Positions 42,104 through 60,889 are shown, counted from the stretch's first letter. The stretch is DNA of 64,000 nucleotides from Saprospiraceae bacterium (GCA_025056735.1 JANWVR010000119.1:501-64500), one strand, 5' to 3'. Notes: a model not told the origin generated them from the sequence alone. Program-made: numbers and translations.

Positions 42104-44598
<2,495 letters not shown>

Positions 44599-44610
44599 AT
44601 CGTAACCATA

Positions 44611-44672
44611 AAACTTGTTCGGCCAAGTAACAACCAAGCTTGTTTGGTTGAATACCGCCCAAATTTGTTTGG
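44611..44672. repeat. Three tandem degenerate units of the CCAAAC-AA-GTTTGG family in the oxyR leader
   Basis: The minus strand reads ACCAAACAAATTTGGGCGGTATTCA / ACCAAACAAGCTTGGTTGTTACTTG / GCCGAACAAGTTTTATGGTTACGAT, then the oxyR ATG. Confidence 0.5.
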
Positions 44673-44797
44673 TCATTCCCCTCGCCAAAGCCCACATGAT
44701 TTCGCCCCCTCCCCCATCAACAACTATGCGGCAAATTTATTGATAAAATCTATGGGCCAATAAAAAATATCGGTTTTTTTTATGGAAAGGGTGCTCG

Positions 44798-44805
44798 TAG
44801 CTTTG
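44798..44805 (+). promoter_or_regulatory. TAnnTTTG -7 box (TAGCTTTG) upstream of katG
   Basis: 64 nt upstream of the ATG at 44869. Confidence 0.35.
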
Positions 44806-44868
44806 TGCTGCCTCTAAAAAGTTCATGCAGAAAAAGCATCAGAAACACTATTGCTCGTCACTTTGTAA

Positions 44869-47076
<2,208 letters not shown>

Positions 47077-47427: not shown

Positions 47428-48111
47428 TCAGTCCACCTCCCGCTTTCCGGCCATCAAATGCTGCAGCGCCTCCTCGCAGGCGGCTTCGTCGAAGAGGGCT
47501 TCTACCGGAATCTCAAACCCTTCGATGACGTGGCTTTTGATGTCCATGCCCAGACGGGCTTTGTGCGGCGGCATGAATTGGGAGTCTTCGCCCACGCGCA
47601 GGTATTGTTCGATGAGCTGTTTGTCGGTGTCCACAATCCAGTACTCCCGTACGCCGTGGGCAGCGTAGTCAATGAGTTTGATTCCCCGGTCATACTTGGC
47701 CGTGGATTTCGACAGAATTTCCACCACAAAATCGGGTGCTGGAAACAGCATCTGGTCGTCGGTAAAGCTGGCTGCTCGCTCGGCAGTAAAGAAGCAGATA
47801 TCGGGTTTGTAGTCGTTTCGGGTGAGGGCAATGAGGGCTTTTTCTGTCAAAACTTCTCCCAGTTTCCTCGACCGCACATAAATTTCCATCAGCAAGGTAA
47901 GGTTGGCCGAAACCTTAAGATGATTTCTTTTCACCGGCGAATGCAACACAGTCTCTCCATTGATGAACTCTGCTTTTTTGCTTTCGTCAAGCCATTCTCG
48001 AAAGACTTGCCGGCGCACTGCCTCGTCGGCTAAATGCCTCTGCAACTTTTCCACCAAAAGCGGCAAATCAGGGTGCCGGAGCAGTTCAGTTGCTCTATCG
48101 GCGACTTTCAT
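47428..48111 (-). CDS. Uma2-family (DUF820) putative endonuclease
   Basis: KAEFINGETVLHSPVKRNH..., DYKPDICFF, DFVVEILSKST and GVREYWIVD give the PD-(D/E)XK-like Uma2 pattern. ATG at 48111. An in-frame TTG at 48207 would overlap the caspase-gene stop by 4 nt (TTGA). Confidence 0.8.
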   Translation of the reverse strand: MKVADRATELLRHPDLPLLVEKLQRHLADEAVRRQVFREWLDESKKAEFINGETVLHSPVKRNHLKVSANLTLLMEIYVRSRKLGEVLTEKALIALTRNDYKPDICFFTAERAASFTDDQMLFPAPDFVVEILSKSTAKYDRGIKLIDYAAHGVREYWIVDTDKQLIEQYLRVGEDSQFMPPHKARLGMDIKSHVIEGFEIPVEALFDEAACEEALQHLMAGKREVD

Positions 48112-48203
48112 AAAGATATTTTTAAGCAAATTTACGTGCCTTTTTTCCTCTTGTACAAACGCGGCAAGAACTACCTCACCAGTATCCTCTGCGAGTGTTC
48201 GAC

Positions 48204-51200
48204 TCAACGCACCACGCCCACCGGGAAGTCATTCCCAAATCCAAAACTGGCCGGATACTGCGGCGTGCCCTTGTAACGGGCTGTTAGTTCGGGAACAATG
48301 GCCTGCAGATAAGCATCTATTTCCTTGACGGTGATGCGCTTATCGCCGTTATCGGCTTTACCCTTGAGGGCTTCCAGTAGGGCATAGGTGAAGGTGCCGT
48401 GGCCCAATTGAGCAAACTCGCTGGCGAATTGTTCGCTGCCCGAAGCCGTTAGCCAGTGGGTGCCTGTGGCGCGGGCTAACTGGCTGATGGCTTTCTCTTC
48501 GGCAGCGCCGCGCACGGCCACCTGTTCCAGAGCGCCGGCTGACTGGCAGGCATCTAAAAGGTAGAGCTGCTTCTGGGCCTTGATGTCTTTGGAGTACTGC
48601 TGCAAGGCGCTGGCACTCAGGCCTTTCGCCTCCAGTGCTTCGTCGTTGCCGTACAGTTGCGTCACGTCGTGCGGCACTAAGTAGAACATCCGCTTCTCAT
48701 TGAGCACGCCATGGCCGGCATAATAGAAGACGAACACGTCCCTGGCTTGAGCAGTGGTTTTTATCTTTTCTAAGGCGGCGGCGATATTGCTCAGCGTGGC
48801 CTGTTCGTCGGCGATGAAGGCCACCTCAATGCCTTTGAAGATGCCTGTGCTGCTCTGTTGCAGTTGCTCGCGGAAGGCAGTGGCGTCGGCCAAAGCATAG
48901 TTGAGGTTGTACTTGGGATTTTTGTATTTGTTGATGCCGACGATAAGGGCATGCAGGGTAATGTCGCCTCCTGAGGGCGCGGGCGTTGGCGTGGTGGGTG
49001 TATATTGGAGCGCCAGTTCGGCCGGGCTGGACTCGGTGCGCTGGGAGTTGAGGGCGATGGCGCGGAAGCGGTTTTCGCCAGGCAGTAGTTCGAGGGTGAA
49101 GGAGCGGGTTTCGCGTTGCTTTTTGTCGTCGTCCACCACTAAGCCACGGACGCTGCCGGCGACAAGTTTGCCGTTGTGGAAGAGGCGTATTTCGTCCACC
49201 ACGTCGTCGGGGGCATAAGCTTCTACCGTGAGCGTAATGGGCGACTGGGCGACAGTGAGCGTGGGCACATCATCATCGTCCACCACTAAGTTGCGCTGTT
49301 TGTCCTGATATTGAATTTTGACTACCGGCGGTCGCTTCAGTTTCTTGATGTCTTCGTCGGGGTTGACGGGCGGCAGCGGCGTTCCGCCCAGCAATTGTGC
49401 CAGCAGGCCCGGGGTGTAGTAGCGTTCGTAGAGTTGTTCGAGCGGGATGATGTCCATGCCTTTGACGTAGTACAGCTTGCGCATGGCGTCGGGCGAGGCA
49501 TCAAAGCGGCCGTCGGGCGTGAGGCACACCCAGTCGTTCGTCTTAGGGAACAGGAAGAGCGTGGCTAAGGCTGCAGCTTCCCGGCTATCCCAGAGCACGA
49601 TTCTGCCGTCGTTGCTGATAGAGAGGGCATAGCGCGGGTTGTGTTTGAAGTAGTCCAGCGTATGGACGTAGTCCGTCAGCGGATTGTAATTAGGCAGGAT
49701 GACTTTTTGGGCTTTCATGTCCCAAAAAGAAATTTTGGAACTGGAGGCGAATAGCACCTGGCTGGCATCGGGCGAGATGGCGGCTCTCATCACCTCAAGG
49801 CCGCTTATCGGCACATTCCATAGATAATGCGTCTTAACAACCTGGCCGTTTTGCGGGCGCAACACCTTAAGGTTTTTCTCTTTTTTGTCAAAGCACAGAA
49901 TACCTTCAGACGTTTCCTGAAAACTGACGTACTCGCCTTTAAGCGTCCAAAGTATTTTTCCTGAGGCCACCTCTACACAGTAGGCCTGTGGCGAGTTGTC
50001 GGGCAAGATGGCAGAGGCGATGATTTTGCGGTCGTTGTCGAAGAAAGTGCCCAGCTTGGGCTCTACGATGATGTAGGTTTGGGGGTTGATGGTTACTTCG
50101 CGCAGTATGGTCATCGTCTGCGCATCGAAGAGGTACATACCGCCGGTATTTATGACGGCGCCGACTTTGCCGTTTTTGCCGACGACGATAGCCGAGCCGT
50201 TACCGTTGAGGCGCGCCGAAGCCTGCAGTTGCGCGTTTTGTTCCTGGCTTCTGAACTTTTCCACCACACCCATCGTGCCCGTGTGTACGCGGTATTTGCC
50301 ATCGGGCGAATAGACGGATATTTCATTTTGGGTGTTCACTTTCAGGAAGTTGACGGTTCGACCCAGCACCACTTCGCAATCTTTACCATACTGGAAGCGG
50401 AAGTCGTCAGGCGCAAGAGTGCTGTAGAAGGGCGATACGATGGCGTCGCCTACTTCGCGGATTTTTTGTCGGGTGATGAGGTCCCACTCTTCCATGCGGT
50501 TTTCTGGGTGGCTGATGGACAGATAGACCGTGCGGACGGAGCCGTTTTCTTTGCGGGCCGGGCAGGTATGGTCTATGGAGTGATAGACGGCGGAGTGATA
50601 CTTGAAGTCAGGGCCAAGTGTGCGCTTGTTGAAATCGGCGATGGTATGTTGCTCGTAATTGTACAGAAACACCCGCCGGTTGTCGAGCCAAAACATATTC
50701 TTGATGGAATACGGCTCCACTTTAGTCGGGCCGGATACGGTAACTTCGGGCGAGAACGTCACCGGGTTCAAAATGGAGAGCGTGCCCTGGCCGTTGGCTA
50801 TAGCTATTTCGAGTAGCTTGTTATCGGGGGTGAAGGCATACAGGTTGCCGGGCGTATCGAAGGTTTTGATGACCTGCTTGCTGGCGTTGTCAATCAGGTA
50901 GGCCGGGCTTTTGTCCACCTGAGCAATGCTATACCTGCCGTCAGAGGTAACGCCGAAACTCTTCAGGGTGGAGATATCGCCGACTGGAAAGACAAAGAGG
51001 GTATCCACGCGCTTCCTGGCTAAATTGATAGCCAACACTACGCCTCTGGTGTTGGAGGTGTAGGCATACACTTGCGAAGGGTCGGGCGACACACCCAACT
51101 GGCGCATACCGAGCACGTACATAGAGTCCATCAGGGCGAAGTTGGCAGTATTTATCATGTAAACCATGGAGCGGCCTGTGAGGAACAGGGTCTTGCCATC

Positions 51201-51446
51201 CTGGGTTTCGACGCCTCTGAAGGCTGTGATTTTGAGCGTCTTGAGCAAGCGACCCGAGCTGCTCTCCCAGATCTGAGTGCTGTTTTCGCCCATGACGAGA
51301 AAATACTTATTGCCCTGCACCGACAGGACGTTGTGCGGCTTGCCCAAGCGGGTCGGGATAATCAATTCGGGTGCCTGGGCGCTGACCATAGCAGCAAGCA
51401 AAAGACATCCCACAATGAAAACAAAGGGTCTGACGCCGATTTTCAT
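48204..51446 (-). CDS. Exported beta-propeller (WD40/YVTN-like) repeat protein with C-terminal caspase (peptidase C14) domain
   Basis: Signal peptide MKIGVRPFVFIVGCLLLAAMVSAQA; about 700 aa of propeller-type repeats (IWESSSGRLLKTLK, ISFWDMKAQKV, IVLWDSREAAALATL); an Ig-like spacer. The caspase domain carries the His and Cys contexts VFVFYYAGHG and LYLLDACQSAG. Confidence 0.85.
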   Translation of the reverse strand: MKIGVRPFVFIVGCLLLAAMVSAQAPELIIPTRLGKPHNVLSVQGNKYFLVMGENSTQIWESSSGRLLKTLKITAFRGVETQDGKTLFLTGRSMVYMINTANFALMDSMYVLGMRQLGVSPDPSQVYAYTSNTRGVVLAINLARKRVDTLFVFPVGDISTLKSFGVTSDGRYSIAQVDKSPAYLIDNASKQVIKTFDTPGNLYAFTPDNKLLEIAIANGQGTLSILNPVTFSPEVTVSGPTKVEPYSIKNMFWLDNRRVFLYNYEQHTIADFNKRTLGPDFKYHSAVYHSIDHTCPARKENGSVRTVYLSISHPENRMEEWDLITRQKIREVGDAIVSPFYSTLAPDDFRFQYGKDCEVVLGRTVNFLKVNTQNEISVYSPDGKYRVHTGTMGVVEKFRSQEQNAQLQASARLNGNGSAIVVGKNGKVGAVINTGGMYLFDAQTMTILREVTINPQTYIIVEPKLGTFFDNDRKIIASAILPDNSPQAYCVEVASGKILWTLKGEYVSFQETSEGILCFDKKEKNLKVLRPQNGQVVKTHYLWNVPISGLEVMRAAISPDASQVLFASSSKISFWDMKAQKVILPNYNPLTDYVHTLDYFKHNPRYALSISNDGRIVLWDSREAAALATLFLFPKTNDWVCLTPDGRFDASPDAMRKLYYVKGMDIIPLEQLYERYYTPGLLAQLLGGTPLPPVNPDEDIKKLKRPPVVKIQYQDKQRNLVVDDDDVPTLTVAQSPITLTVEAYAPDDVVDEIRLFHNGKLVAGSVRGLVVDDDKKQRETRSFTLELLPGENRFRAIALNSQRTESSPAELALQYTPTTPTPAPSGGDITLHALIVGINKYKNPKYNLNYALADATAFREQLQQSSTGIFKGIEVAFIADEQATLSNIAAALEKIKTTAQARDVFVFYYAGHGVLNEKRMFYLVPHDVTQLYGNDEALEAKGLSASALQQYSKDIKAQKQLYLLDACQSAGALEQVAVRGAAEEKAISQLARATGTHWLTASGSEQFASEFAQLGHGTFTYALLEALKGKADNGDKRITVKEIDAYLQAIVPELTARYKGTPQYPASFGFGNDFPVGVVR

Positions 51447-51477
51447 AATTGAGAAAGTTTATGCGCTTGGAAAGATA

Positions 51478-51517
51478 GGGTAGTCATCCGATGACAATGG
51501 GTCATCCGATGACTACC
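51478..51517. repeat. Twin 13-bp perfect palindromes (GTCATC-C-GATGAC x2, 18-bp period) forming a 17-bp-arm hyphenated dyad
   Basis: gggTAGTCATCCGATGACaatggGTCATCCGATGACTAcc. It lies 17 nt after the C1-peptidase stop. It abuts a TATCTTTC box (51470-51477, minus strand) 24 nt upstream of the caspase-gene ATG. Confidence 0.85.
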
Positions 51518-51533
51518 TGAAAATGGCTGCATC

Positions 51534-53090
51534 TTAATTGTGTGTAATCTCCACCATCAGCGGCACCACCTTGCCCTGTACTTTGCCCTCTACGTCGAAG
51601 CCCACCTGGTTGAGGCGGTACTGCACCTGGCTGGGCGGGATGAGCTTGTCGCCTAACGCGGCGCGGATTTTGGCCGACAGGCCGCCCTTTACACCGTTCA
51701 TTTTTTGCAGAATGGCGTTGTGGTCGAGTTTTTCGGCTGAGAACAGGATAAGCATGTAGTCGGTGCCTTTAGTATCGTCCAGGCGCACTACTTTGGTTTC
51801 GGAGGGGAAGGCGATCTGGCTGTTAGGCCCGATGTGGGGCGACATGCCGTCGTCGAAGGGCAACAGTTTGTTCACTTTGCCCGTCAGGTCGGTGGCAAAG
51901 GCGTAGATGTAGCTTTCCGTGTTGGTGGTGATGTAGAACCGGAAGCGCGTGCCGCTGGAGTATTCGCGGTCCATGCGGTAAGCCACTAAGTCCTCCCTGT
52001 AATTTTCTACCGGGACATCGTCCTCGATGATGAGGTTGCGCGTCAGAATTTTACTGACAGGCATAGGGTCGCCTGTATTGAGGCGGAATTCGACGACGCC
52101 CGACAGTTTGGTGGCGACGACGGGCGGCTCGGGTCTGGGTTCGGGGCGCGGTTCGGGCTTGGGCTCCGGTTTGGGTTCGGGTTTTGGAGCGGGTTTTGGC
52201 GGTTCGGGTTCGGGCAGTGGGGCTGGATAGGCCTGCAGGGCGCCGATGGCATAGTTGGCGTAGTCGTCGTAGCGGATCCAGACATAGCCGTTGTCGCACC
52301 ACTTTGGCCCCCAGGAGTTGAGGACGCGGAAGGCGCCGCCGCTCTTGTTGTCGTCGTAGCCCACAACGCACATAGCGTGGCGGCCGTGCGCACCCGAAGG
52401 GCCACCGTCGGTCGAGGCAGGAGTCCACACGGGTGAGGCGGTGTAGAAGCTTTCGGGCACGATGAAACACAGGATGACCGGATAGCCTTCGGCGATGGCT
52501 TTTTTGGTGGTCTGGATTTTCACCTTCGGGTCAGTCTCGTCAGGTAGGAAGAGGATCTGATAGTCGTCCAATCGGAAGTCCAGCGCATTGCGTTTGGCCT
52601 GCTCAGTGATGGGCGCCCCGCACGCATACGGCAACACGGAGAGCGTTGGGCAGCCACCGAGTTTGAGCAGCTCTAAGGCTAAGATAGGGTTGGAGCCGTT
52701 CTGGCAGTCGTGGTCGTCGTCGTCCTTGATATGCTCGTACACCCAGGTAGGCGAGTGCACTAAGCGGTCAATGTCGGCCTTGTTGGAGAGGCCGCGTTGC
52801 CTGGCCGTCAGGATGGTGCGCGTGTGATAGGCCACTGCGAAGGCCACGCATGTGCTGTAACGGCCCTGATCGCCAGGCGTAGGGCAATACTGCTCCAGCG
52901 ACGCCGCTGCCGGCACAGAAGCGTAACTGGCCGCCGTGAGCTTCGCCTTGTAAGGCGTACCGCGATAACTGGGCACGTCGAAAATAAGACCCGTCGGTTT
53001 CTTCTGGGCATGGACGCTGAAAGAGAGCGCAAAAAGCAAGAAAAAAAGACCTGCAGAGCGCTTTGCAAAAAGGGCGATTAGATGTCTCAT
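51534..53090 (-). CDS. Exported papain-like (C1) cysteine peptidase, Pro/Glu/Lys linker, C-terminal DUF4384 domain
   Basis: Signal peptide MRHLIALFAKRSAGLFFLLFALSFSVHAQ. Catalytic Cys context GDQGRYSTCVAFAVAY, His context HAMCVVGYDD, and Asn/Trp context VLNSWGPKWCDNGYVWI. Linker PEPEPPKPAPKPEPKPEPKPEPRPEPRPEPP. DUF4384-like block YIYAFATDLTGKVNKLLPF...GTDYMLILFS. ATG at 53090. Confidence 0.85.
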   Translation of the reverse strand: MRHLIALFAKRSAGLFFLLFALSFSVHAQKKPTGLIFDVPSYRGTPYKAKLTAASYASVPAAASLEQYCPTPGDQGRYSTCVAFAVAYHTRTILTARQRGLSNKADIDRLVHSPTWVYEHIKDDDDHDCQNGSNPILALELLKLGGCPTLSVLPYACGAPITEQAKRNALDFRLDDYQILFLPDETDPKVKIQTTKKAIAEGYPVILCFIVPESFYTASPVWTPASTDGGPSGAHGRHAMCVVGYDDNKSGGAFRVLNSWGPKWCDNGYVWIRYDDYANYAIGALQAYPAPLPEPEPPKPAPKPEPKPEPKPEPRPEPRPEPPVVATKLSGVVEFRLNTGDPMPVSKILTRNLIIEDDVPVENYREDLVAYRMDREYSSGTRFRFYITTNTESYIYAFATDLTGKVNKLLPFDDGMSPHIGPNSQIAFPSETKVVRLDDTKGTDYMLILFSAEKLDHNAILQKMNGVKGGLSAKIRAALGDKLIPPSQVQYRLNQVGFDVEGKVQGKVVPLMVEITHN

Positions 53091-53349
53091 AGTAACTGTG
53101 TATGGGAAAAATGAATGGGAATACACTCGATTTTGCTGCAACTTTCGTACCCAGAACCTGTCAATTTCGGATCTTTTCCGAAATCGGCGGAAAGTTCAGG
53201 TAAACGCTGAAAAAAACGTATAAGGCTTTCTTTTTTTAGCGGCTTGTGTCTGCGGCCCTGGATTTTCCAGTAGCCGAAGCCAATGGCTCGGATGGTTACA
53301 GGAGAGCAGATGAGTTTCTGGGTTGGCGCTTTTGCCCTATGGCATGAGA

Positions 53350-53416
53350 CTTCCTTTGCGGCCCTCTGCGCCCTCGGCGGTTAAAAGATTAAAAACTGGA
53401 GGGCGGTTCACCTGCC
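53350..53416. repeat. Left copy of a ~60-bp imperfect direct repeat bracketing the ATPase-nuclease gene
   Basis: cttCCTTTGcGGCCctctgcgccCTCGGCGGTTAAAAgATtAAAAACtggaGgGCGgTTcACcTGCC. Capitals mark bases shared with 55106-55166. The identical 13-mer TCGGCGGTTAAAA is at 53374-53386. Confidence 0.6.
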
Positions 53417-53468
53417 AATCTGTCTCCCGAGCGCTTGAGCGAGTGGACAAGTTCGGCGGTCATGTGGC

Positions 53469-53476
53469 TATCTTTG
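53469..53476 (+). promoter_or_regulatory. TAnnTTTG -7 box (TATCTTTG) 5 nt upstream of the ATPase ATG
   Basis: If used, this spacing implies a leaderless or near-leaderless mRNA. Confidence 0.3.
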
Positions 53477-53481
53477 CAGCG

Positions 53482-55044
53482 ATGGCTCGCTATTTCAACA
53501 CCACAGGTCTGTGTAACCCGGAGGAGCACTACATGGTGGACCCGCTTCGCGGGAAGTACCCGGATATTCGCCGGCTGATAGAGGCCAAGCAGTATTTTCT
53601 CATCCATGCGCCGCGCCAGACGGGCAAGACGACGCTGCTGCACGCGCTGGCGCGTCGGTTGAATGCGGAGGGAAGGTATATCTCCATCGTAAGTTCTTTA
53701 GAGTCAGCGGGTTTTCAGGATATTAGTGTAGCCGAAGCCAACTGGGCGATGGTCAGTTCTTTGCGCGACAATGCGGAACTTTTCCTCAACGAGGATTTCA
53801 TGCCTCCGACGTTGGAGCAGTATAGCCCGGGAGTTACGCTTTTTCAGCGGTATTTGCAGGATTGGTGTCGAGGTTTGCCAAAACCATTAGTGCTGTTGCT
53901 CGACGAGGTGGACGCGCTGTACGATGACGTGCTGGTGTCGGTGTTGCGGCAGTTGCGCGATGGTTTTCAGCGTCGTCCGCGGTTGTTTCCGCAGTCGGTG
54001 GCGTTGGTGGGCCTGCGCGACATTCGGGAGTACCGTCTCAAGGCGCGCGGCGAAAATCCGTCGCTGGGCGCGGGCTCTCCCTTCAATGTGAAGGCGAAAT
54101 CCATCTTCTTGAAGGTATTCACGCACGAGGAGGCGCTCGGCCTACTGCAACAACACACCGACGAGACCGGGCAGGTATTTACAGAGGAGGCTATTAAAAA
54201 AATCTACGAATACTCCGGTGGTCAGCCCTGGCTGACGAATGCCTTAGCTAACGAAATTGTGGCGGAAATTCTCCAGAACGACTACGCCCGGCCCATTACG
54301 GCAGACATGGTGGAGGAGGCCAAAGAGCGGCTCATTGAACAGCGCCAGACACATTTGGACAGTTTGGTGGACAAGATCAACGAGCCGCGAGTGCGGCCCA
54401 TCGTGATGGCCATCATCAGCGGCGAGAGCATTCACTTCGACGGCTTTGACGACGCCCTGCGCTATTGCCGCGACTTGGGCATCATTACGCAGGACTCGCC
54501 GGTGCGCTTTGCCAATCCGATCTACCGCGAGATCATCACGCGGGTGCTGAACAGCAGTTTTCAGGAAGGGATCAACCCCGACATCGCCCGGATTTCATGG
54601 TATGTTCGGCCGGATGGCTCTTTGGACATGGACAAATTGCTGGATGCATTTGTGGACTTTTACCGCCGGCATTCAGAGTCTTGGTTAGAGCGTTTCGAGT
54701 ACAAGGAGGCAGGCCATCAGTTGTTGTTGATGGCCTTTTTGCAGCGGATTGTCAACGGTGGCGGGCGCATTGAGCGCGAGATGGCGCTGGGTAACGGACG
54801 CACTGATCTGGCAGTGTTATGGAAAGAACAGGTTATTCCTATTGAGTTGAAAATCCGTCACGATAAGTGGTCGGAGTCGGAGGGCATGGAGCAATTGTCG
54901 GGCTACATGGATCGGCTGGGTCAGCGCCGAGGGTATTTGGTGTTGTTTGAGAAGAAGCCTGTATCAGAGTTGCCGTGGGAGGAGCGCATTCGCCGCGAGG
55001 TGCACGAGGTGAACGGCAAGGAGATAGTTTTGCTGCGGATATGA
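53482..55044 (+). CDS. P-loop ATPase (AAA/ORC-like) fused to a C-terminal PD-(D/E)XK nuclease-like domain
   Basis: MARYFNTTGLCNPEEHYMVDP..., Walker A HAPRQTGKTT and Walker B LVLLLDEVDAL. The C-terminus GNGRTDLAVLWKEQVIPIELKI gives the D...E-x-K nuclease core. The track extension 53323-53481 only translates the repeat element. Confidence 0.8.
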   Translation: MARYFNTTGLCNPEEHYMVDPLRGKYPDIRRLIEAKQYFLIHAPRQTGKTTLLHALARRLNAEGRYISIVSSLESAGFQDISVAEANWAMVSSLRDNAELFLNEDFMPPTLEQYSPGVTLFQRYLQDWCRGLPKPLVLLLDEVDALYDDVLVSVLRQLRDGFQRRPRLFPQSVALVGLRDIREYRLKARGENPSLGAGSPFNVKAKSIFLKVFTHEEALGLLQQHTDETGQVFTEEAIKKIYEYSGGQPWLTNALANEIVAEILQNDYARPITADMVEEAKERLIEQRQTHLDSLVDKINEPRVRPIVMAIISGESIHFDGFDDALRYCRDLGIITQDSPVRFANPIYREIITRVLNSSFQEGINPDIARISWYVRPDGSLDMDKLLDAFVDFYRRHSESWLERFEYKEAGHQLLLMAFLQRIVNGGGRIEREMALGNGRTDLAVLWKEQVIPIELKIRHDKWSESEGMEQLSGYMDRLGQRRGYLVLFEKKPVSELPWEERIRREVHEVNGKEIVLLRI

Positions 55045-57525: not shown

Positions 57526-57709
57526 GCAATGCCCCGCTGTCAAAAGATGGTCCCTCTGCTATACCAGACAACGCAAACGGTCGTTGTTTGGGCGTTTGTA
57601 TTAGATTGAACGATAGCCTTTTCTGCTCAAAAACATGCGGACCATCCGGTTGCCTCAGCGCGCGAACGACCAATGCGCTTTTTTCACCTTCACCCAAATC
57701 TGTTTTACC

Positions 57710-60700
57710 ATGAACCCGATGCTGCCTAAACTTTTGCAGCTACTGCTGGCGCTTTGTATTGCCAGCGCGGCTGCTGCCCAGAGCAATGTGGAAGAAATCT
57801 TAGCCCGCGCCAATAAGCAATTTGAACTCAATGCCTTTAATCTGGCTTTGCGTACTTATGAGCAAGCCCTGAAAGAGCAGCCCAACAATGCGCAGGCCCT
57901 GGCCCGCAGTGGCGATTGCTATTTCTACCTCAATCGCCCGCAAGACGCGCTGGGCTGGTACGAACGCGCCCTGCAAAGCGACCCGTCGCCCTCGGAGGTG
58001 ATGTTTCGCTACGGGCGCGCGCTCATGCACACGGGCGACTATCTGGGCGCCAAGAAATGGTTCCTGGCTTATGCCGCTCTGAACAGCACTGTGGGCCAGC
58101 ATTACGCCCAGATGTGCGACTTTGCCCTCCAGGCCAGTCGGCGCGAGGGCATCTTCAAGGCGCTGAACGAGCCAATCAGCACAGCCAGTGCCGACTTTGC
58201 GCCTGCCTTCTATGGAGACCAGATCGTGTACAGCTCCTCGCGCAGCGATATCAAACGCCGCACCAGCACCAAATCGAGCAGCGACTGGACGGGCAGCGCC
58301 CACAACCAGCTGTTCGTAACGCGCCGGGGCCCCGACGGGTATTTGCAAAACCCAACCTTCCTGCGCGAAGATCTGGAAAACACCTTCAACGACGGGCCGG
58401 TCAGCTTCTCCGCCAACAAGCGTCGCGTGGCTTATTGCCGCAACTCGTTTATGGACGGTACGCGCCAAATATCGGAAAAGGGCATGAGTCTGAGTCTGTA
58501 CGTGGCCGATGTGGTTGAAGGTAAGTGGGTCAACGAACGTGCCTTCCCTTACAATGGCTCCGACTATGCCACAGGATTTCCCTATCTGAGCGCCGACGGC
58601 AACACGCTCTATTTCGCCTCTGACCGCCCGGGCGGTATGGGCGGATGGGACCTGTATGTGTCCACCTGGAACGGCAGCGCGTGGTCTGTGCCCAAAAACC
58701 TCGGTGCGCCCATCAACACGCCAGGCAACGAAATCACGCCTTTTGTGGAAGACGATATCCTCTATTTCGCTTCCGATTGGCACCCGGGTCTGGGTGGCTT
58801 CGACGTGTTTCGCATAGAACTGAGCGACTTCGGCACGCCGCAGGTGTTTCATCTGGGCACGGGCATCAACTCCTCGCGCGACGACTACGGCTTCATCTTC
58901 GACGCCCGCAGCGGCTATGGCTACCTGACCAGCAACCGCCCTGGCGGACGCGGCCACGAAGACCTCTGGCAGGTGCGCAAGCAGGTAGATGAATTCACTA
59001 TCGAAGTCGTAGATGCCCAGCAGCGCCCTATTTCTTACGCCGAGATTGACTTTTCGGCCTGCAGCAGCGCCGCCGGCATCCGCCAAACCGACGCCGCCGG
59101 CCGCTACACCTTCCAGACGCCCGCTGGTCGGGCCAACTGCCAGGCTACCGTGCGCAAAGACGGATACCAGCCTGCGACAGTGTCTATTCGCACCGCTGGC
59201 GATAAAAGCCTGAAGGTCGTCCTGGCCAACGACGGCGCCGCTGCCCGCTCAACAACCTCACCCTTCTCGGCAACTGCCCCTGTTACTTACAGCACTACGC
59301 CCGACAACGACGACATTCCTGTGCGCATGGGCAACATCGAGCGCTTCACTGTAACCGTTACTGACCCAAATGGGCGCCCTATGCCCGGTGCTGAAATCAA
59401 CCTGACGGCCTGCGATCTGGGCATCCAGCGCACCGATGAAAACGGCCAGGCGGCGTTTTACTATCCAGCCAACAGCGAATGCAACCTTATCGTGCGTAAA
59501 AGCGGCCACGAAGACGTCTTCATCGCCCTGCACCAACAGGCCGGGCGCGACCTGGCCGTCCGCCTGAAGCCGTCGAACCGCATGCGCTACGGCGGCATCG
59601 TGCGCGACATGAACACGGGGCGCCCTCTGGCCGACGTGCAGGTAACAGCGCGCGCCGAAAGCGAAAATCACGAGACCGTCGCTATCAGCGATGCCGCCGG
59701 CAAGTACAACCTGTCGCTCAAGCCCAACTTGAACTACAAGGTCATCTATGAAAAGGAAGGCTATCTGAAAGGCGTCGCCAGTGTGTACAGCATTGCGCAC
59801 GAAGACAATGCGAATTACCCCATGATGCCTGACCCGGCCGCCAAACCAGTGCAATATTCGACGGTAACTCCGGGCAGTAGCCCGGGTATGATTTCCATAG
59901 ACGAACTCGATGCCTCCAAACCCTCGAGTACGGCCAAACCGCGGAAGCCTTCGTCGCCTGCGACTAAAGGAGAGGCTTTTGCCATTCAATTAGCCGCCAA
60001 TCCAGAAGACTTCTCGGCCAGCCGCCTGCGCCGTTACAGTGAATACACCTCTCTGGGCAACCTGTACACCGTACGCGAAGGCAACTTGTACAAACTGCGG
60101 CTGGGCGCCTACCCCTCGCGCGAGCAGGCCGACGCTGCGCTGGCGCAAATAGCGCCTACCATCACAGATGCTTTTGTCGTGCGCGAGACGCAGGTTAATC
60201 CTGAACTGCTGGTCAGCAGCACGCCATCGGCTTCTGTGCAGTCGGTCAAAAGCCCGATGACATACTCGACCCCTACAGCGCCTGCCCAGCGGTATGCTGT
60301 TCAGGTGGCCTCATCGCCCGCCGATAAGCCGCTGCAACTGAACGACTACGCCCGCCTGAGTAACCTTGGTACAGCGTACATCCGCACAGAAAACAACGTC
60401 ATGCACGTTCGTTTGGGCCCGTGGGATACCCCGGCCCAGGCCGAAGCCGCCCGCGCTGAAGCGGCCCGACAGGGCTTCCCAGGCGCCGTGGTGGTAGTGG
60501 AAAGATCTGCAAACCCGTCTGGCACATCTGCCGAACCGCGATCAGGTTCCTTTACCTCAATGAGCGTATCGGCCATGCCTACGACGCCAAATACTTACTC
60601 AGCGCCCTCGACAACAACACCCTCCGCAGCAGCGCCGCTCAAAGAGTATTACATTCGCCTGAGCGCTATGGAAAACCCCGACAACTTCAACCCTCGCCAG

Positions 60701-60889
60701 GTGGAAGGCGTCGGCGGACGTTTGGAAAAATGGCCCTTGCCCGACGGCAAAATGACAGCCATCATGCTGACGGGTTTCACGGATCTGGAAGAAGCCAAAC
60801 GAGCCACTGATCGCCTGCGCGCCGGCGCTTTCCCAGATGCCTATATCATTCAGAATGAGCAAGGTAAGATGAGCCGCAACCGCTATTAA
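57710..60889 (+). CDS. Exported envelope protein: TPR repeats, PD40/TolB-like beta-propeller, CarboxypepD_reg-like Ig domains, three C-terminal SPOR domains
   Basis: Signal peptide MNPMLPKLLQLLLALCIASAAAAQ; TPR (ALRTYEQALKEQPNNAQALARSGDCYFYLNRPQDALGWYERAL); PD40-type motifs (YLSADGNTLYFASDRPGGMGGWDLY, ILYFASDWHPGLGGFDVF). Three SPOR-like units (FAIQLAAN...YKLRLGAYPSREQADAAL; YAVQVASS...VRLGPWDTPAQAEAA; YYIRLSAM...TGFTDLEEAKRATDRL). Confidence 0.8.
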   Translation: MNPMLPKLLQLLLALCIASAAAAQSNVEEILARANKQFELNAFNLALRTYEQALKEQPNNAQALARSGDCYFYLNRPQDALGWYERALQSDPSPSEVMFRYGRALMHTGDYLGAKKWFLAYAALNSTVGQHYAQMCDFALQASRREGIFKALNEPISTASADFAPAFYGDQIVYSSSRSDIKRRTSTKSSSDWTGSAHNQLFVTRRGPDGYLQNPTFLREDLENTFNDGPVSFSANKRRVAYCRNSFMDGTRQISEKGMSLSLYVADVVEGKWVNERAFPYNGSDYATGFPYLSADGNTLYFASDRPGGMGGWDLYVSTWNGSAWSVPKNLGAPINTPGNEITPFVEDDILYFASDWHPGLGGFDVFRIELSDFGTPQVFHLGTGINSSRDDYGFIFDARSGYGYLTSNRPGGRGHEDLWQVRKQVDEFTIEVVDAQQRPISYAEIDFSACSSAAGIRQTDAAGRYTFQTPAGRANCQATVRKDGYQPATVSIRTAGDKSLKVVLANDGAAARSTTSPFSATAPVTYSTTPDNDDIPVRMGNIERFTVTVTDPNGRPMPGAEINLTACDLGIQRTDENGQAAFYYPANSECNLIVRKSGHEDVFIALHQQAGRDLAVRLKPSNRMRYGGIVRDMNTGRPLADVQVTARAESENHETVAISDAAGKYNLSLKPNLNYKVIYEKEGYLKGVASVYSIAHEDNANYPMMPDPAAKPVQYSTVTPGSSPGMISIDELDASKPSSTAKPRKPSSPATKGEAFAIQLAANPEDFSASRLRRYSEYTSLGNLYTVREGNLYKLRLGAYPSREQADAALAQIAPTITDAFVVRETQVNPELLVSSTPSASVQSVKSPMTYSTPTAPAQRYAVQVASSPADKPLQLNDYARLSNLGTAYIRTENNVMHVRLGPWDTPAQAEAARAEAARQGFPGAVVVVERSANPSGTSAEPRSGSFTSMSVSAMPTTPNTYSAPSTTTPSAAAPLKEYYIRLSAMENPDNFNPRQVEGVGGRLEKWPLPDGKMTAIMLTGFTDLEEAKRATDRLRAGAFPDAYIIQNEQGKMSRNRY

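Follow-up and report, generated by a model that had tools for sequence, protein, structure and literature searches.

The stretch of DNA analysed here, 64,000 nucleotides from Saprospiraceae bacterium (GCA_025056735.1 JANWVR010000119.1:501-64500; the whole of it is referred to below as the window), encodes on its minus strand, at positions 48204-53090, two neighbouring cysteine proteases of different types, both with predicted signal peptides. The first combines a papain-like C1 peptidase with a DUF4384 domain, and the second combines a tandem WD40 β-propeller with a C-terminal C14 domain of the orthocaspase type. Exported WD40-metacaspases have already been noted in earlier genome papers; what is new here is that the two genes are conserved as a pair, that the propeller evolves fast, and that the two proteins share a private motif, TRNL-V-EDD. 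We tentatively interpret the pair as a processing cascade of the cell envelope, in which the orthocaspase-like enzyme would activate or release its papain-like partner.

The two genes are consecutive minus-strand open reading frames (ORFs) at 51534-53090 (gene 1, encoding protein 1; 518 aa from ATG) and 48204-51446 (gene 2, encoding protein 2; 1080 aa), separated by 87 nt, and they correspond to public gene calls of 518 and 1080 aa in a Saprospiraceae metagenome-assembled genome (MAG; GCA_033579295.1, contig JAVQVY010000006.1). A first-pass annotation, made from the sequence without database searches, had described a tandem of exported C1-DUF4384 and propeller-C14 proteins at this place, and the ORFs, gene calls and Pfam matches confirm it. 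For comparison, 80 loci were taken from species-representative genomes by means of an alignment of C1-DUF4384 homologues, and their ORFs were searched with the domains found in the window. The loci come from Saprospiraceae, Chitinophagaceae (Paraflavitalea, Ferruginibacter), Flavobacteriaceae (Dokdonia, Aequorivita, Jejudonia, Patiriisocius, Altibacter), Spirosomataceae (Arcicella, Flectobacillus), Pedobacter, Bacteroidales and Lentimicrobiaceae, and from a few MAGs whose labels name other phyla. In 65 of 83 non-redundant loci the C1-DUF4384 gene is immediately followed, on the same strand, by a propeller-caspase gene, and 11 more contain one elsewhere in the locus; as four loci are too short to judge and three have no propeller-caspase, the pairing holds in 76 of 79 informative loci. 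The distance between the two genes is often only 0-40 nt. Full-length propeller-caspase genes are present in one copy in 53 loci, in two copies in 8 and in three copies in 3, and such tandem paralogues (1-3 per locus) differ mainly in the propeller. The association is also reciprocal, in that a caspase-family representative of 33% identity has a C1-DUF4384 gene immediately upstream; a distant deltaproteobacterial WD40 protein has none. All-against-all clustering of the loci revealed no other gene kept with the pair beyond lineage-specific synteny, and within families, e.g. in Flavobacteriaceae, the locus is stably syntenic. The pair is thus a two-gene operon conserved across Bacteroidota, and because the genes are kept together on one strand and tightly spaced throughout this phylum, a functional link between the two proteases is supported.

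Both families are large. An exhaustive search of 1.84 billion cluster representatives (50%-identity clusters) with the propeller-caspase returned 3,456 matches at E<=1e-30, and the best 150 of them all have E<1e-126, are mostly 1,050-1,170 aa long and carry the conserved block at the C-terminus. It was used since in a word-indexed search with an alignment of 24 propeller-caspases generic WD40 proteins dominated the output and few orthologues were gained. The architecture is therefore present in at least 150 cluster representatives, and probably in far more. The order of domains in protein 2, which had been singled out in the first-pass annotation as unusual, is then simply the standard one: a C-terminal caspase is the normal form of a very large Bacteroidota family, one that is common, as had been allowed for, but not characterised. 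C1-DUF4384 homologues number at least 499 in a word-indexed search, and all 120 of those listed contain both Peptidase_C1 (PF00112) and DUF4384 (PF14326). In the databases they are labelled as "DUF4384 domain-containing protein" or "C1 family peptidase", and the propeller-caspases are labelled as "caspase family protein".

Structure prediction, which had been proposed as a check, gave confident AlphaFold2 models of both proteins. That of protein 1, built from 74 homologues, has a mean predicted local distance difference test score (pLDDT) of 90.9 and a predicted TM-score (pTM) of 0.85. A predicted signal peptide (aa 1-28, 53007-53090; this and all following coordinates within the pair refer to the minus strand) is followed by a conserved N-terminal extension (aa 29-62, 52905-53006) and by the C1 catalytic domain (aa 63-289, 52224-52904), which is matched by Pfam Peptidase_C1 at residues 126-284 (E 7.5e-10). 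The catalytic motifs STCVAF (C81), HAMCVVGY (H238) and NSWG (N258) are intact, and Q75, C81, H238, N258 and W260 are invariant among the 74 aligned homologues. The closest entry in the PDB is xylellain (3OIS), by profile comparison (E 5e-17) as well as by Foldseek (E 1.5e-15, TM-score 0.75). Within the C1 domain C129 and C157 form an invariant cysteine pair, which fits an oxidising compartment. The profile alignment with xylellain starts in the segment of about 35 residues that precedes the C1 domain. In this extension K48 is invariant, P46 and Y47 are at least 90% conserved and L51 nearly so, and the model is confident there (pLDDT 88-96). Xylellain's N-terminal sequence reportedly blocks its own active site, as Leite and co-workers are said to have found in 2013, and we take the extension of protein 1 to be its counterpart; by this analogy the segment suggests a latent papain-like enzyme. 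A linker rich in Pro, Glu and Lys (PEPEPPKPAPKPEPKPEPKPEPRPEPRPEPP; aa 290-326, 52113-52223), which has no secondary structure in the model, leads to the DUF4384 β-sandwich with its conserved C-terminal helices and strands (aa 327-518, 51537-52112; modelled strands at 329-451 and 496-517), recognized by PF14326 at residues 377-453 (E 1.2e-8, 35.3 bits against a cutoff of 27).

The model of protein 2, built from 96 homologues, has pLDDT 89.3 and pTM 0.86; in it a signal helix is followed by about 630 residues of β-strands, a linker at 651-707, a β-sandwich at 708-815 and an α/β caspase fold at 830-1080. The signal peptide (aa 1-23, 51378-51446) thus precedes a tandem WD40 β-propeller (aa 24-650, 49497-51377), for which Pfam gives weak β-propeller matches, Foldseek finds double WD40 propellers as top matches (Utp/Pwp2, Gemin5, Apaf-1) and profile comparison finds 2YMU. 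A conserved linker of short strands and helices, containing W..TPDGRFDAS (aa 651-707, 49326-49496), connects it to the "mid" β-sandwich (aa 708-815, 49002-49325) and this in turn to the C14 caspase-fold domain (aa 830-1080, 48207-48959), matched by Peptidase_C14 (PF00656) at residues 832-1064 (E 4.5e-17, 63 bits against a cutoff of 21.4). The dyad resides in YYAGHG (H912) and DACQSAG (C967), and H912, G913, C967, D854 and D965 are invariant in the 96 homologues. The earlier claim of intact catalytic residues is therefore borne out for both proteins: the motifs quoted then are present and their catalytic residues are invariant in the 74 and 96 homologues, and both proteases are very probably catalytically competent. 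Since Foldseek with the whole model retrieves WD40 propellers only, it is uninformative for the mid and caspase domains, and a search of the PDB with the C-terminal 376 aa as a single sequence gave no match. When a profile of the caspase domain is used instead, the nearest solved structures are the metacaspases MCA2, Yca1, AtMC9 and AtMC4, all with weak scores (E ~0.002-0.03). In one such weak alignment (E 0.002), D854 corresponds to the Asp of the MCA2 "CCND" motif, which we take to be an S1-pocket residue; D965, two residues before C967, is presumably the second S1-pocket Asp. Because of these two invariant residues, the C14 domain would be expected to prefer Arg or Lys at P1. No NCBIfam model reaches its cutoff for these proteins; NF047832 (EACC1-associated caspase) matches protein 2 below threshold (104.5 bits against a cutoff of 140), and no EACC1 partner is conserved among the fetched loci. 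The least confidently modelled part of the caspase domain is the loop of residues 969-975 just after the catalytic Cys (nt about 48522-48542), followed by a conserved RGAAEEK (R979, K985); presumably this loop is the site of the inter-subunit linker at which caspases and orthocaspases autoprocess.

The two halves of protein 2 differ strongly in their rate of change. The median pairwise identity is 0.16 in the propeller, 0.40 in the linker, 0.45 in the mid domain and 0.58 in the caspase domain. One homologue (P0202) is 0.18-0.19 identical in the propeller versus 0.78 in the protease part, and a tandem paralogue (P0007) retains 80% identity in the caspase domain versus 40-44% in the propeller. 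The propeller evolves far faster than the protease part.

The two proteins, dissimilar as their domains are, share a short motif with the consensus [T/Q]-R-[N/G]-L-x-V-[E/D]-D-[D/E], present once in protein 1 (TRNLIIEDD, aa 350-358, 52017-52043) and twice in protein 2 (QRNLVVDDD, aa 717-725, 49272-49298; VRGLVVDDD, aa 766-774, 49125-49151). Its R, L and V are 92-95% conserved. A loose regular expression applied to 85 loci matched 87 times in C1-DUF4384 proteins, 147 times in propeller-caspases and, among 269,186 residues outside these proteins, only 3 times, and two of these three outside matches lie in ORFs of ~355 aa with a signal peptide, located between the two genes, whose C-terminal halves look DUF4384-like by eye. 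In the six-frame translation of the window the motif occurs three times, always within proteins 1 and 2. A scan of a metagenome collection for T[R/S]NLVVEDD gave 24 matches, comprising 12 in C1-DUF4384 proteins, 9 in propeller-caspases and 3 elsewhere. When the mid domain of protein 2 is compared with the DUF4384 region by hhalign, only 10 residues, those of the motif, are aligned; because the similarity is confined to these residues, we regard the element as a linear motif common to unrelated domains, and homology of the mid β-sandwich to DUF4384 was considered and rejected on the same grounds. All three copies lie in poorly modelled loops: in protein 1 the motif forms a coil in the least confident loop of the model (pLDDT about 50 at 351-360 and below 50 at 356-360), and in protein 2 the values are 69-72 at 711-730, with no secondary structure at 714-728, and below 50 at 767-769. 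According to the models, then, the motif loops are probably flexible and exposed.

The third gene found between the members of the pair (L022:6174-7262 and L029:3031-4086) encodes a signal peptide, an N-terminal domain, the sequence TRNLIVEDD/E, a Pro-rich linker and a C-terminus that appears DUF4384-like by eye. The motif is truly absent from the C1 protein in a few loci, and in the Planctomycetota-labelled MAG the neighbouring caspase protein also lacks both copies. In this MAG and in one labelled Nibricoccus the pair is present, with a C1 protein devoid of the motif and with caspase proteins containing 0-1 copies; these occurrences of the pair outside Bacteroidota would reflect either mis-binning or a horizontal transfer accompanied by loss of the motif.

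Export of both proteins is predicted from the features of their N-termini. In both, a basic n-region and a hydrophobic core precede a small-x-small site, after which comes Gln, and the same pattern recurs in 70-odd orthologous propeller-caspases from the fetched loci. In the homologue alignments Gln is found at position +1 in 88 of 96 propeller-caspases and 63 of 74 C1-DUF4384 proteins, and Ala at -1 in 74 of 96 and 52 of 74, respectively. Substrates of signal peptidase I in Bacteroidetes follow such a Q-rule, with Gln placed after the cleavage site (PMC5837995, PMC10653852). On the strength of the n/h/c pattern and the Q-rule in the alignments, both proteins are very probably exported. The first-pass annotation had spoken of classic Sec signal peptides, and this holds for both families; its cleavage site for the caspase protein does not, as the Gln at +1 found throughout the family makes VSA/QAPE likelier than AQA/P, while VHA/QKKP is predicted for protein 1. 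No lipobox Cys is found at the cleavage site of proteins 1 and 2 or of most orthologues, and neither protein has an NCBIfam match to a type IX C-terminal domain (of the TIGR04183/TIGR04131 type), gene 2 ending inside the caspase domain. Given the lack of these two signals, both proteins are by default assigned to the periplasm or cell envelope.

Three expectations thus come together: a latent papain-like enzyme, a fused protease that would cleave after Arg or Lys, and a shared loop that offers an Arg. The interpretation that we prefer, and hold as possible though short of probable, is a caspase-to-papain processing cascade in the envelope, in which the orthocaspase would cut the motif loops of itself and of its partner and so activate or release the papain-like enzyme. 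The variable propeller would recruit a ligand or a target protein; the C14 domain, if Arg/Lys-specific, would then carry out limited proteolysis behind the essentially invariant Arg of the motif, in its own chain as well as in the C1-DUF4384 protein, with a second possible cut after the invariant K48 in the partner's N-terminal segment. These cuts would turn the papain-like enzyme from a latent into an active or released form. Limited proteolysis at the motif is suggested by the match between its Arg and the expected specificity of the C14 domain, and by the flexible loops in which it would lie. A precedent for such an arrangement is the caspase-like Csx29, which in type III-E CRISPR systems cleaves Csx30, a protein whose C-terminal domain belongs in one group to DUF4384 (bioRxiv 10.1101/2022.08.17.504292).

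Several observations weigh against the proposed cascade. A few C1-DUF4384 homologues have no motif even though the partner keeps it, as in one of the loci (L030). The S1 assignment, and with it the expected specificity, is weak, as it draws on one alignment of low significance (E 0.002) and on earlier literature. Either of the two proteases might cut the motif, or neither, in which case it could serve in binding or sorting. Finally, the periplasm is a location by default, and transport to the surface or into vesicles is possible as well.

A more mundane explanation is that the two enzymes are independent degradative proteases, co-expressed and exported for nutrient acquisition, with the propeller and DUF4384 binding the substrate or anchoring the enzymes, the motif serving a structural or anchoring purpose, and no cross-activation. 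Bacteroidota do export many proteases, the stable synteny within families is of the kind seen for a metabolic accessory function, and a same-strand CarboxypepD_reg/outer membrane (OM) β-barrel gene found directly upstream in Flavobacteriaceae and some other lineages fits peptide uptake. This neighbour is, however, lineage-restricted and absent from the window, the proteins lack both the C-terminal domain of the type IX secretion system (T9SS) and the lipobox, which mark the usual routes to the Bacteroidota surface, and neither the strict phylum-wide pairing of two cysteine protease types nor a private, near-invariant 9-residue motif would be expected of digestive enzymes; we consider this explanation somewhat unlikely. 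The fast propeller invites quite another idea, an envelope device for surveillance or cell death, in which a hypervariable propeller would sense a foreign or damage-related ligand in the periplasm, much like the sensor domains of Apaf-1 and NLR proteins, and unleash both proteases on envelope proteins of the cell or of an invader, in immunity, fratricide or programmed death. The excess divergence of the propeller over the protease part (0.16 vs 0.58 in the family, 0.18-0.19 vs 0.78 in P0202) and the 1-3 tandem paralogues that differ mainly there speak for it, as do the sub-threshold likeness of the caspase domain to the "EACC1-associated caspase" of conflict systems and the weak defence-library matches of the Uma2-type nuclease and AAA ATPase that flank the pair in the window. 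Yet WD40 repeats often diverge fast without positive selection, and these two neighbours are not conserved. In Flavobacteriaceae the locus shows vertical stability and synteny and does not sit in variable islands, PADLOC assigns only a generic "caspase" model to gene 2 and nothing to gene 1, and no NTPase or other typical partner of conflict systems is kept. Such a device is in our view improbable.

Part of its logic can also be joined to the cascade, as an extracytoplasmic pathway resembling the apoptosome: a rapidly diversifying propeller would detect a non-self or damage signal in the Bacteroidota envelope and activate the fused orthocaspase, which would cut TR/NL-V-EDD loops and thereby release an active papain-like effector. 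This fuller version we judge decidedly improbable. Alternatively, the C14 enzyme could act in sorting, as a clan CD transpeptidase in the manner of PorU, legumain or GPI8, which would cleave the TRNL-V-EDD loops and join the resulting fragments to a component of the envelope, so that the motif would be a sorting signal. Clan CD does include transpeptidases, PorU works together with the double-propeller protein PorZ in Bacteroidota, and the motif, which is probably flexible, lies inside the chain and is restricted to the system's own proteins. But sorting signals are normally terminal, and here an internal position tells against one; the C14 domain is closest to metacaspases, which are hydrolases, it shows no sequence relation to C25/PorU, and no genes for the synthesis of an acceptor are conserved nearby, which makes this the kind of explanation to which we would give very little weight.

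The spacer between the two genes (51447-51533, 87 nt) has no terminator-like site in the window. It holds a near-palindromic 13-mer, GTCATCGGATGAC, in two copies on the minus strand (51501-51513 and 51483-51495) that lie 5 nt apart and could represent an operator or an RNA hairpin. The pair is flanked in the window by a gene for a putative endonuclease of the Uma2 family (47428-48207, minus strand) and by a divergent gene for an AAA_35/AAA_16 ATPase (53323-55044, plus strand), both with weak matches in defence libraries (PADLOC PDC-S03 in the case of the nuclease). They were considered as members of the system and rejected, because neither is a conserved neighbour of the pair elsewhere. Farther away, at 43651-47076, there are a catalase-peroxidase-like gene (Pfam "peroxidase", 731-735 aa) and a divergent LysR-type regulator, possibly an OxyR-like pair. 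At 57635-60889, on the plus strand, a protein of 1,059-1,084 aa has matches to TPR, PD40, CarboxypepD_reg and, weakly, SPOR in precomputed annotation; this is a further large protein whose domains are of the envelope type, and it is not a caspase.

Other neighbours have been seen outside the window. In about ten loci from several families a two-component system, by eye a histidine kinase with signal peptide, TPR and transmembrane segments and a LuxR-type response regulator, lies within 3.5 kb of the pair and may regulate the operon; the TPR sensor kinase and the LuxR regulator were looked for in the window and are absent from it. In at least twelve loci of Flavobacteriaceae, one or two GLPGLI-like proteins and an OM β-barrel of ~900 aa are found by eye upstream on the same strand, and one further locus (L086) has a Pfam-annotated CarboxypepD_reg/Plug/TonB-dependent-receptor gene upstream of the pair.

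The role of bacterial orthocaspases is a long-standing open question, and its discussion has dealt almost entirely with cytoplasmic enzymes and with cell death in cyanobacteria. The family described here is widespread in Bacteroidota and has a fixed papain-like partner, a probable extracytoplasmic location and a candidate motif for cleavage or recognition. Since it combines these with cultured, tractable hosts (Dokdonia, Aequorivita, Arcicella, Flectobacillus, Pedobacter and Paraflavitalea carry the pair), its specificity, cross-activation and physiological role are directly testable. The pair would also supply the first functional context for DUF4384. Should the apoptosome-like version be true, it would provide the first defined substrate motif and physiological role of a bacterial orthocaspase, one acting outside the cytoplasm; should the enzymes be ordinary digestive ones, the result would be a useful annotation and no surprise.

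In the literature on DUF4384 and on exported or WD40-containing orthocaspases and metacaspases of Bacteroidota, we have found no description of the pair, and none of the seven papers that a full-text search returned for DUF4384 deals with it; its components do have relatives. The first-pass annotation had pictured bacterial orthocaspases as cytoplasmic proteins with an N-terminal caspase domain, which is too narrow a view (PMC3501461, PMC3914696): WD40 is the commonest accessory domain of prokaryotic metacaspases, N-terminal transmembrane helices or signal peptides and an extracellular localisation have been discussed for them, and Haliscomenobacter, another member of Saprospiraceae, has 28 metacaspases (PMC3501461). 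Nor are caspases the only partners of DUF4384, which had been described as usually fused to them; it is known in fusion with various protease domains (bioRxiv 10.1101/2022.08.17.504292; PMC6426788), and occurs also with trypsin-like and pseudo-orthocaspase proteins (PMC6426788) and with kinases (bioRxiv 10.1101/2025.01.12.632604). A published parallel is a genomic island of Psychroflexus torquis (Flavobacteriaceae) with large WD40-repeat metacaspases, several of them flagged as having signal peptides, and a regulator nearby, for which a speculative link to cell death and to interaction with algae has been suggested (PMC3914696). The likeness to our pair is by description only, and neither a papain/DUF4384 partner nor the motif is reported there.

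Protein 2 shares the caspase-haemoglobinase fold and the His-Cys dyad with the orthocaspases and metacaspases of MEROPS C14B (Microcystis MaOC1, T. brucei MCA2, yeast Yca1). However, its protease domain is C-terminal to a propeller of ~630 aa and a β-sandwich, it is predicted to be exported by Sec, it adjoins the gene of a papain-like partner, it has two TRNL-V-EDD loops, and its similarity to the solved enzymes is weak (E about 0.002). Protein 1 resembles xylellain, the C1A peptidase of Xylella fastidiosa (3OIS), and other "short bacterial xylellain-type" C1A peptidases (PMC10380794) in its intact Gln-Cys-His-Asn set and in the short N-terminal extension that replaces the I29 prodomain, and differs from xylellain by its signal peptide, its Pro-rich linker, the DUF4384 domain with the motif loop and the orthocaspase gene beside it. 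In Craspase the caspase-like Csx29 likewise cleaves the product of a neighbouring gene, Csx30, in a flexible linker, but that system is cytoplasmic and RNA-guided, its protease is of the CHAT type, and it includes neither a C1 protease nor signal peptides. Fragipain activates the B. fragilis toxin, and Arg-gingipain processes pro-Kgp and fimbrilins; both are Arg-specific clan CD proteases that activate exported proteins by limited proteolysis outside the cytoplasm, as is proposed here for protein 2, although they belong to C11 and C25 rather than C14, are exported as a lipoprotein or by the T9SS, and have neither a propeller nor a papain-like operon partner. Finally, while the propeller and the protease are here parts of one predicted extracytoplasmic polypeptide that has neither an NB-ARC ATPase nor a CARD, a purely architectural likeness links it to the Apaf-1/caspase-9 apoptosome, in which a tandem WD40 propeller is also coupled to caspase-family proteolysis and whose Apaf-1 is itself among the fold matches of the propeller.

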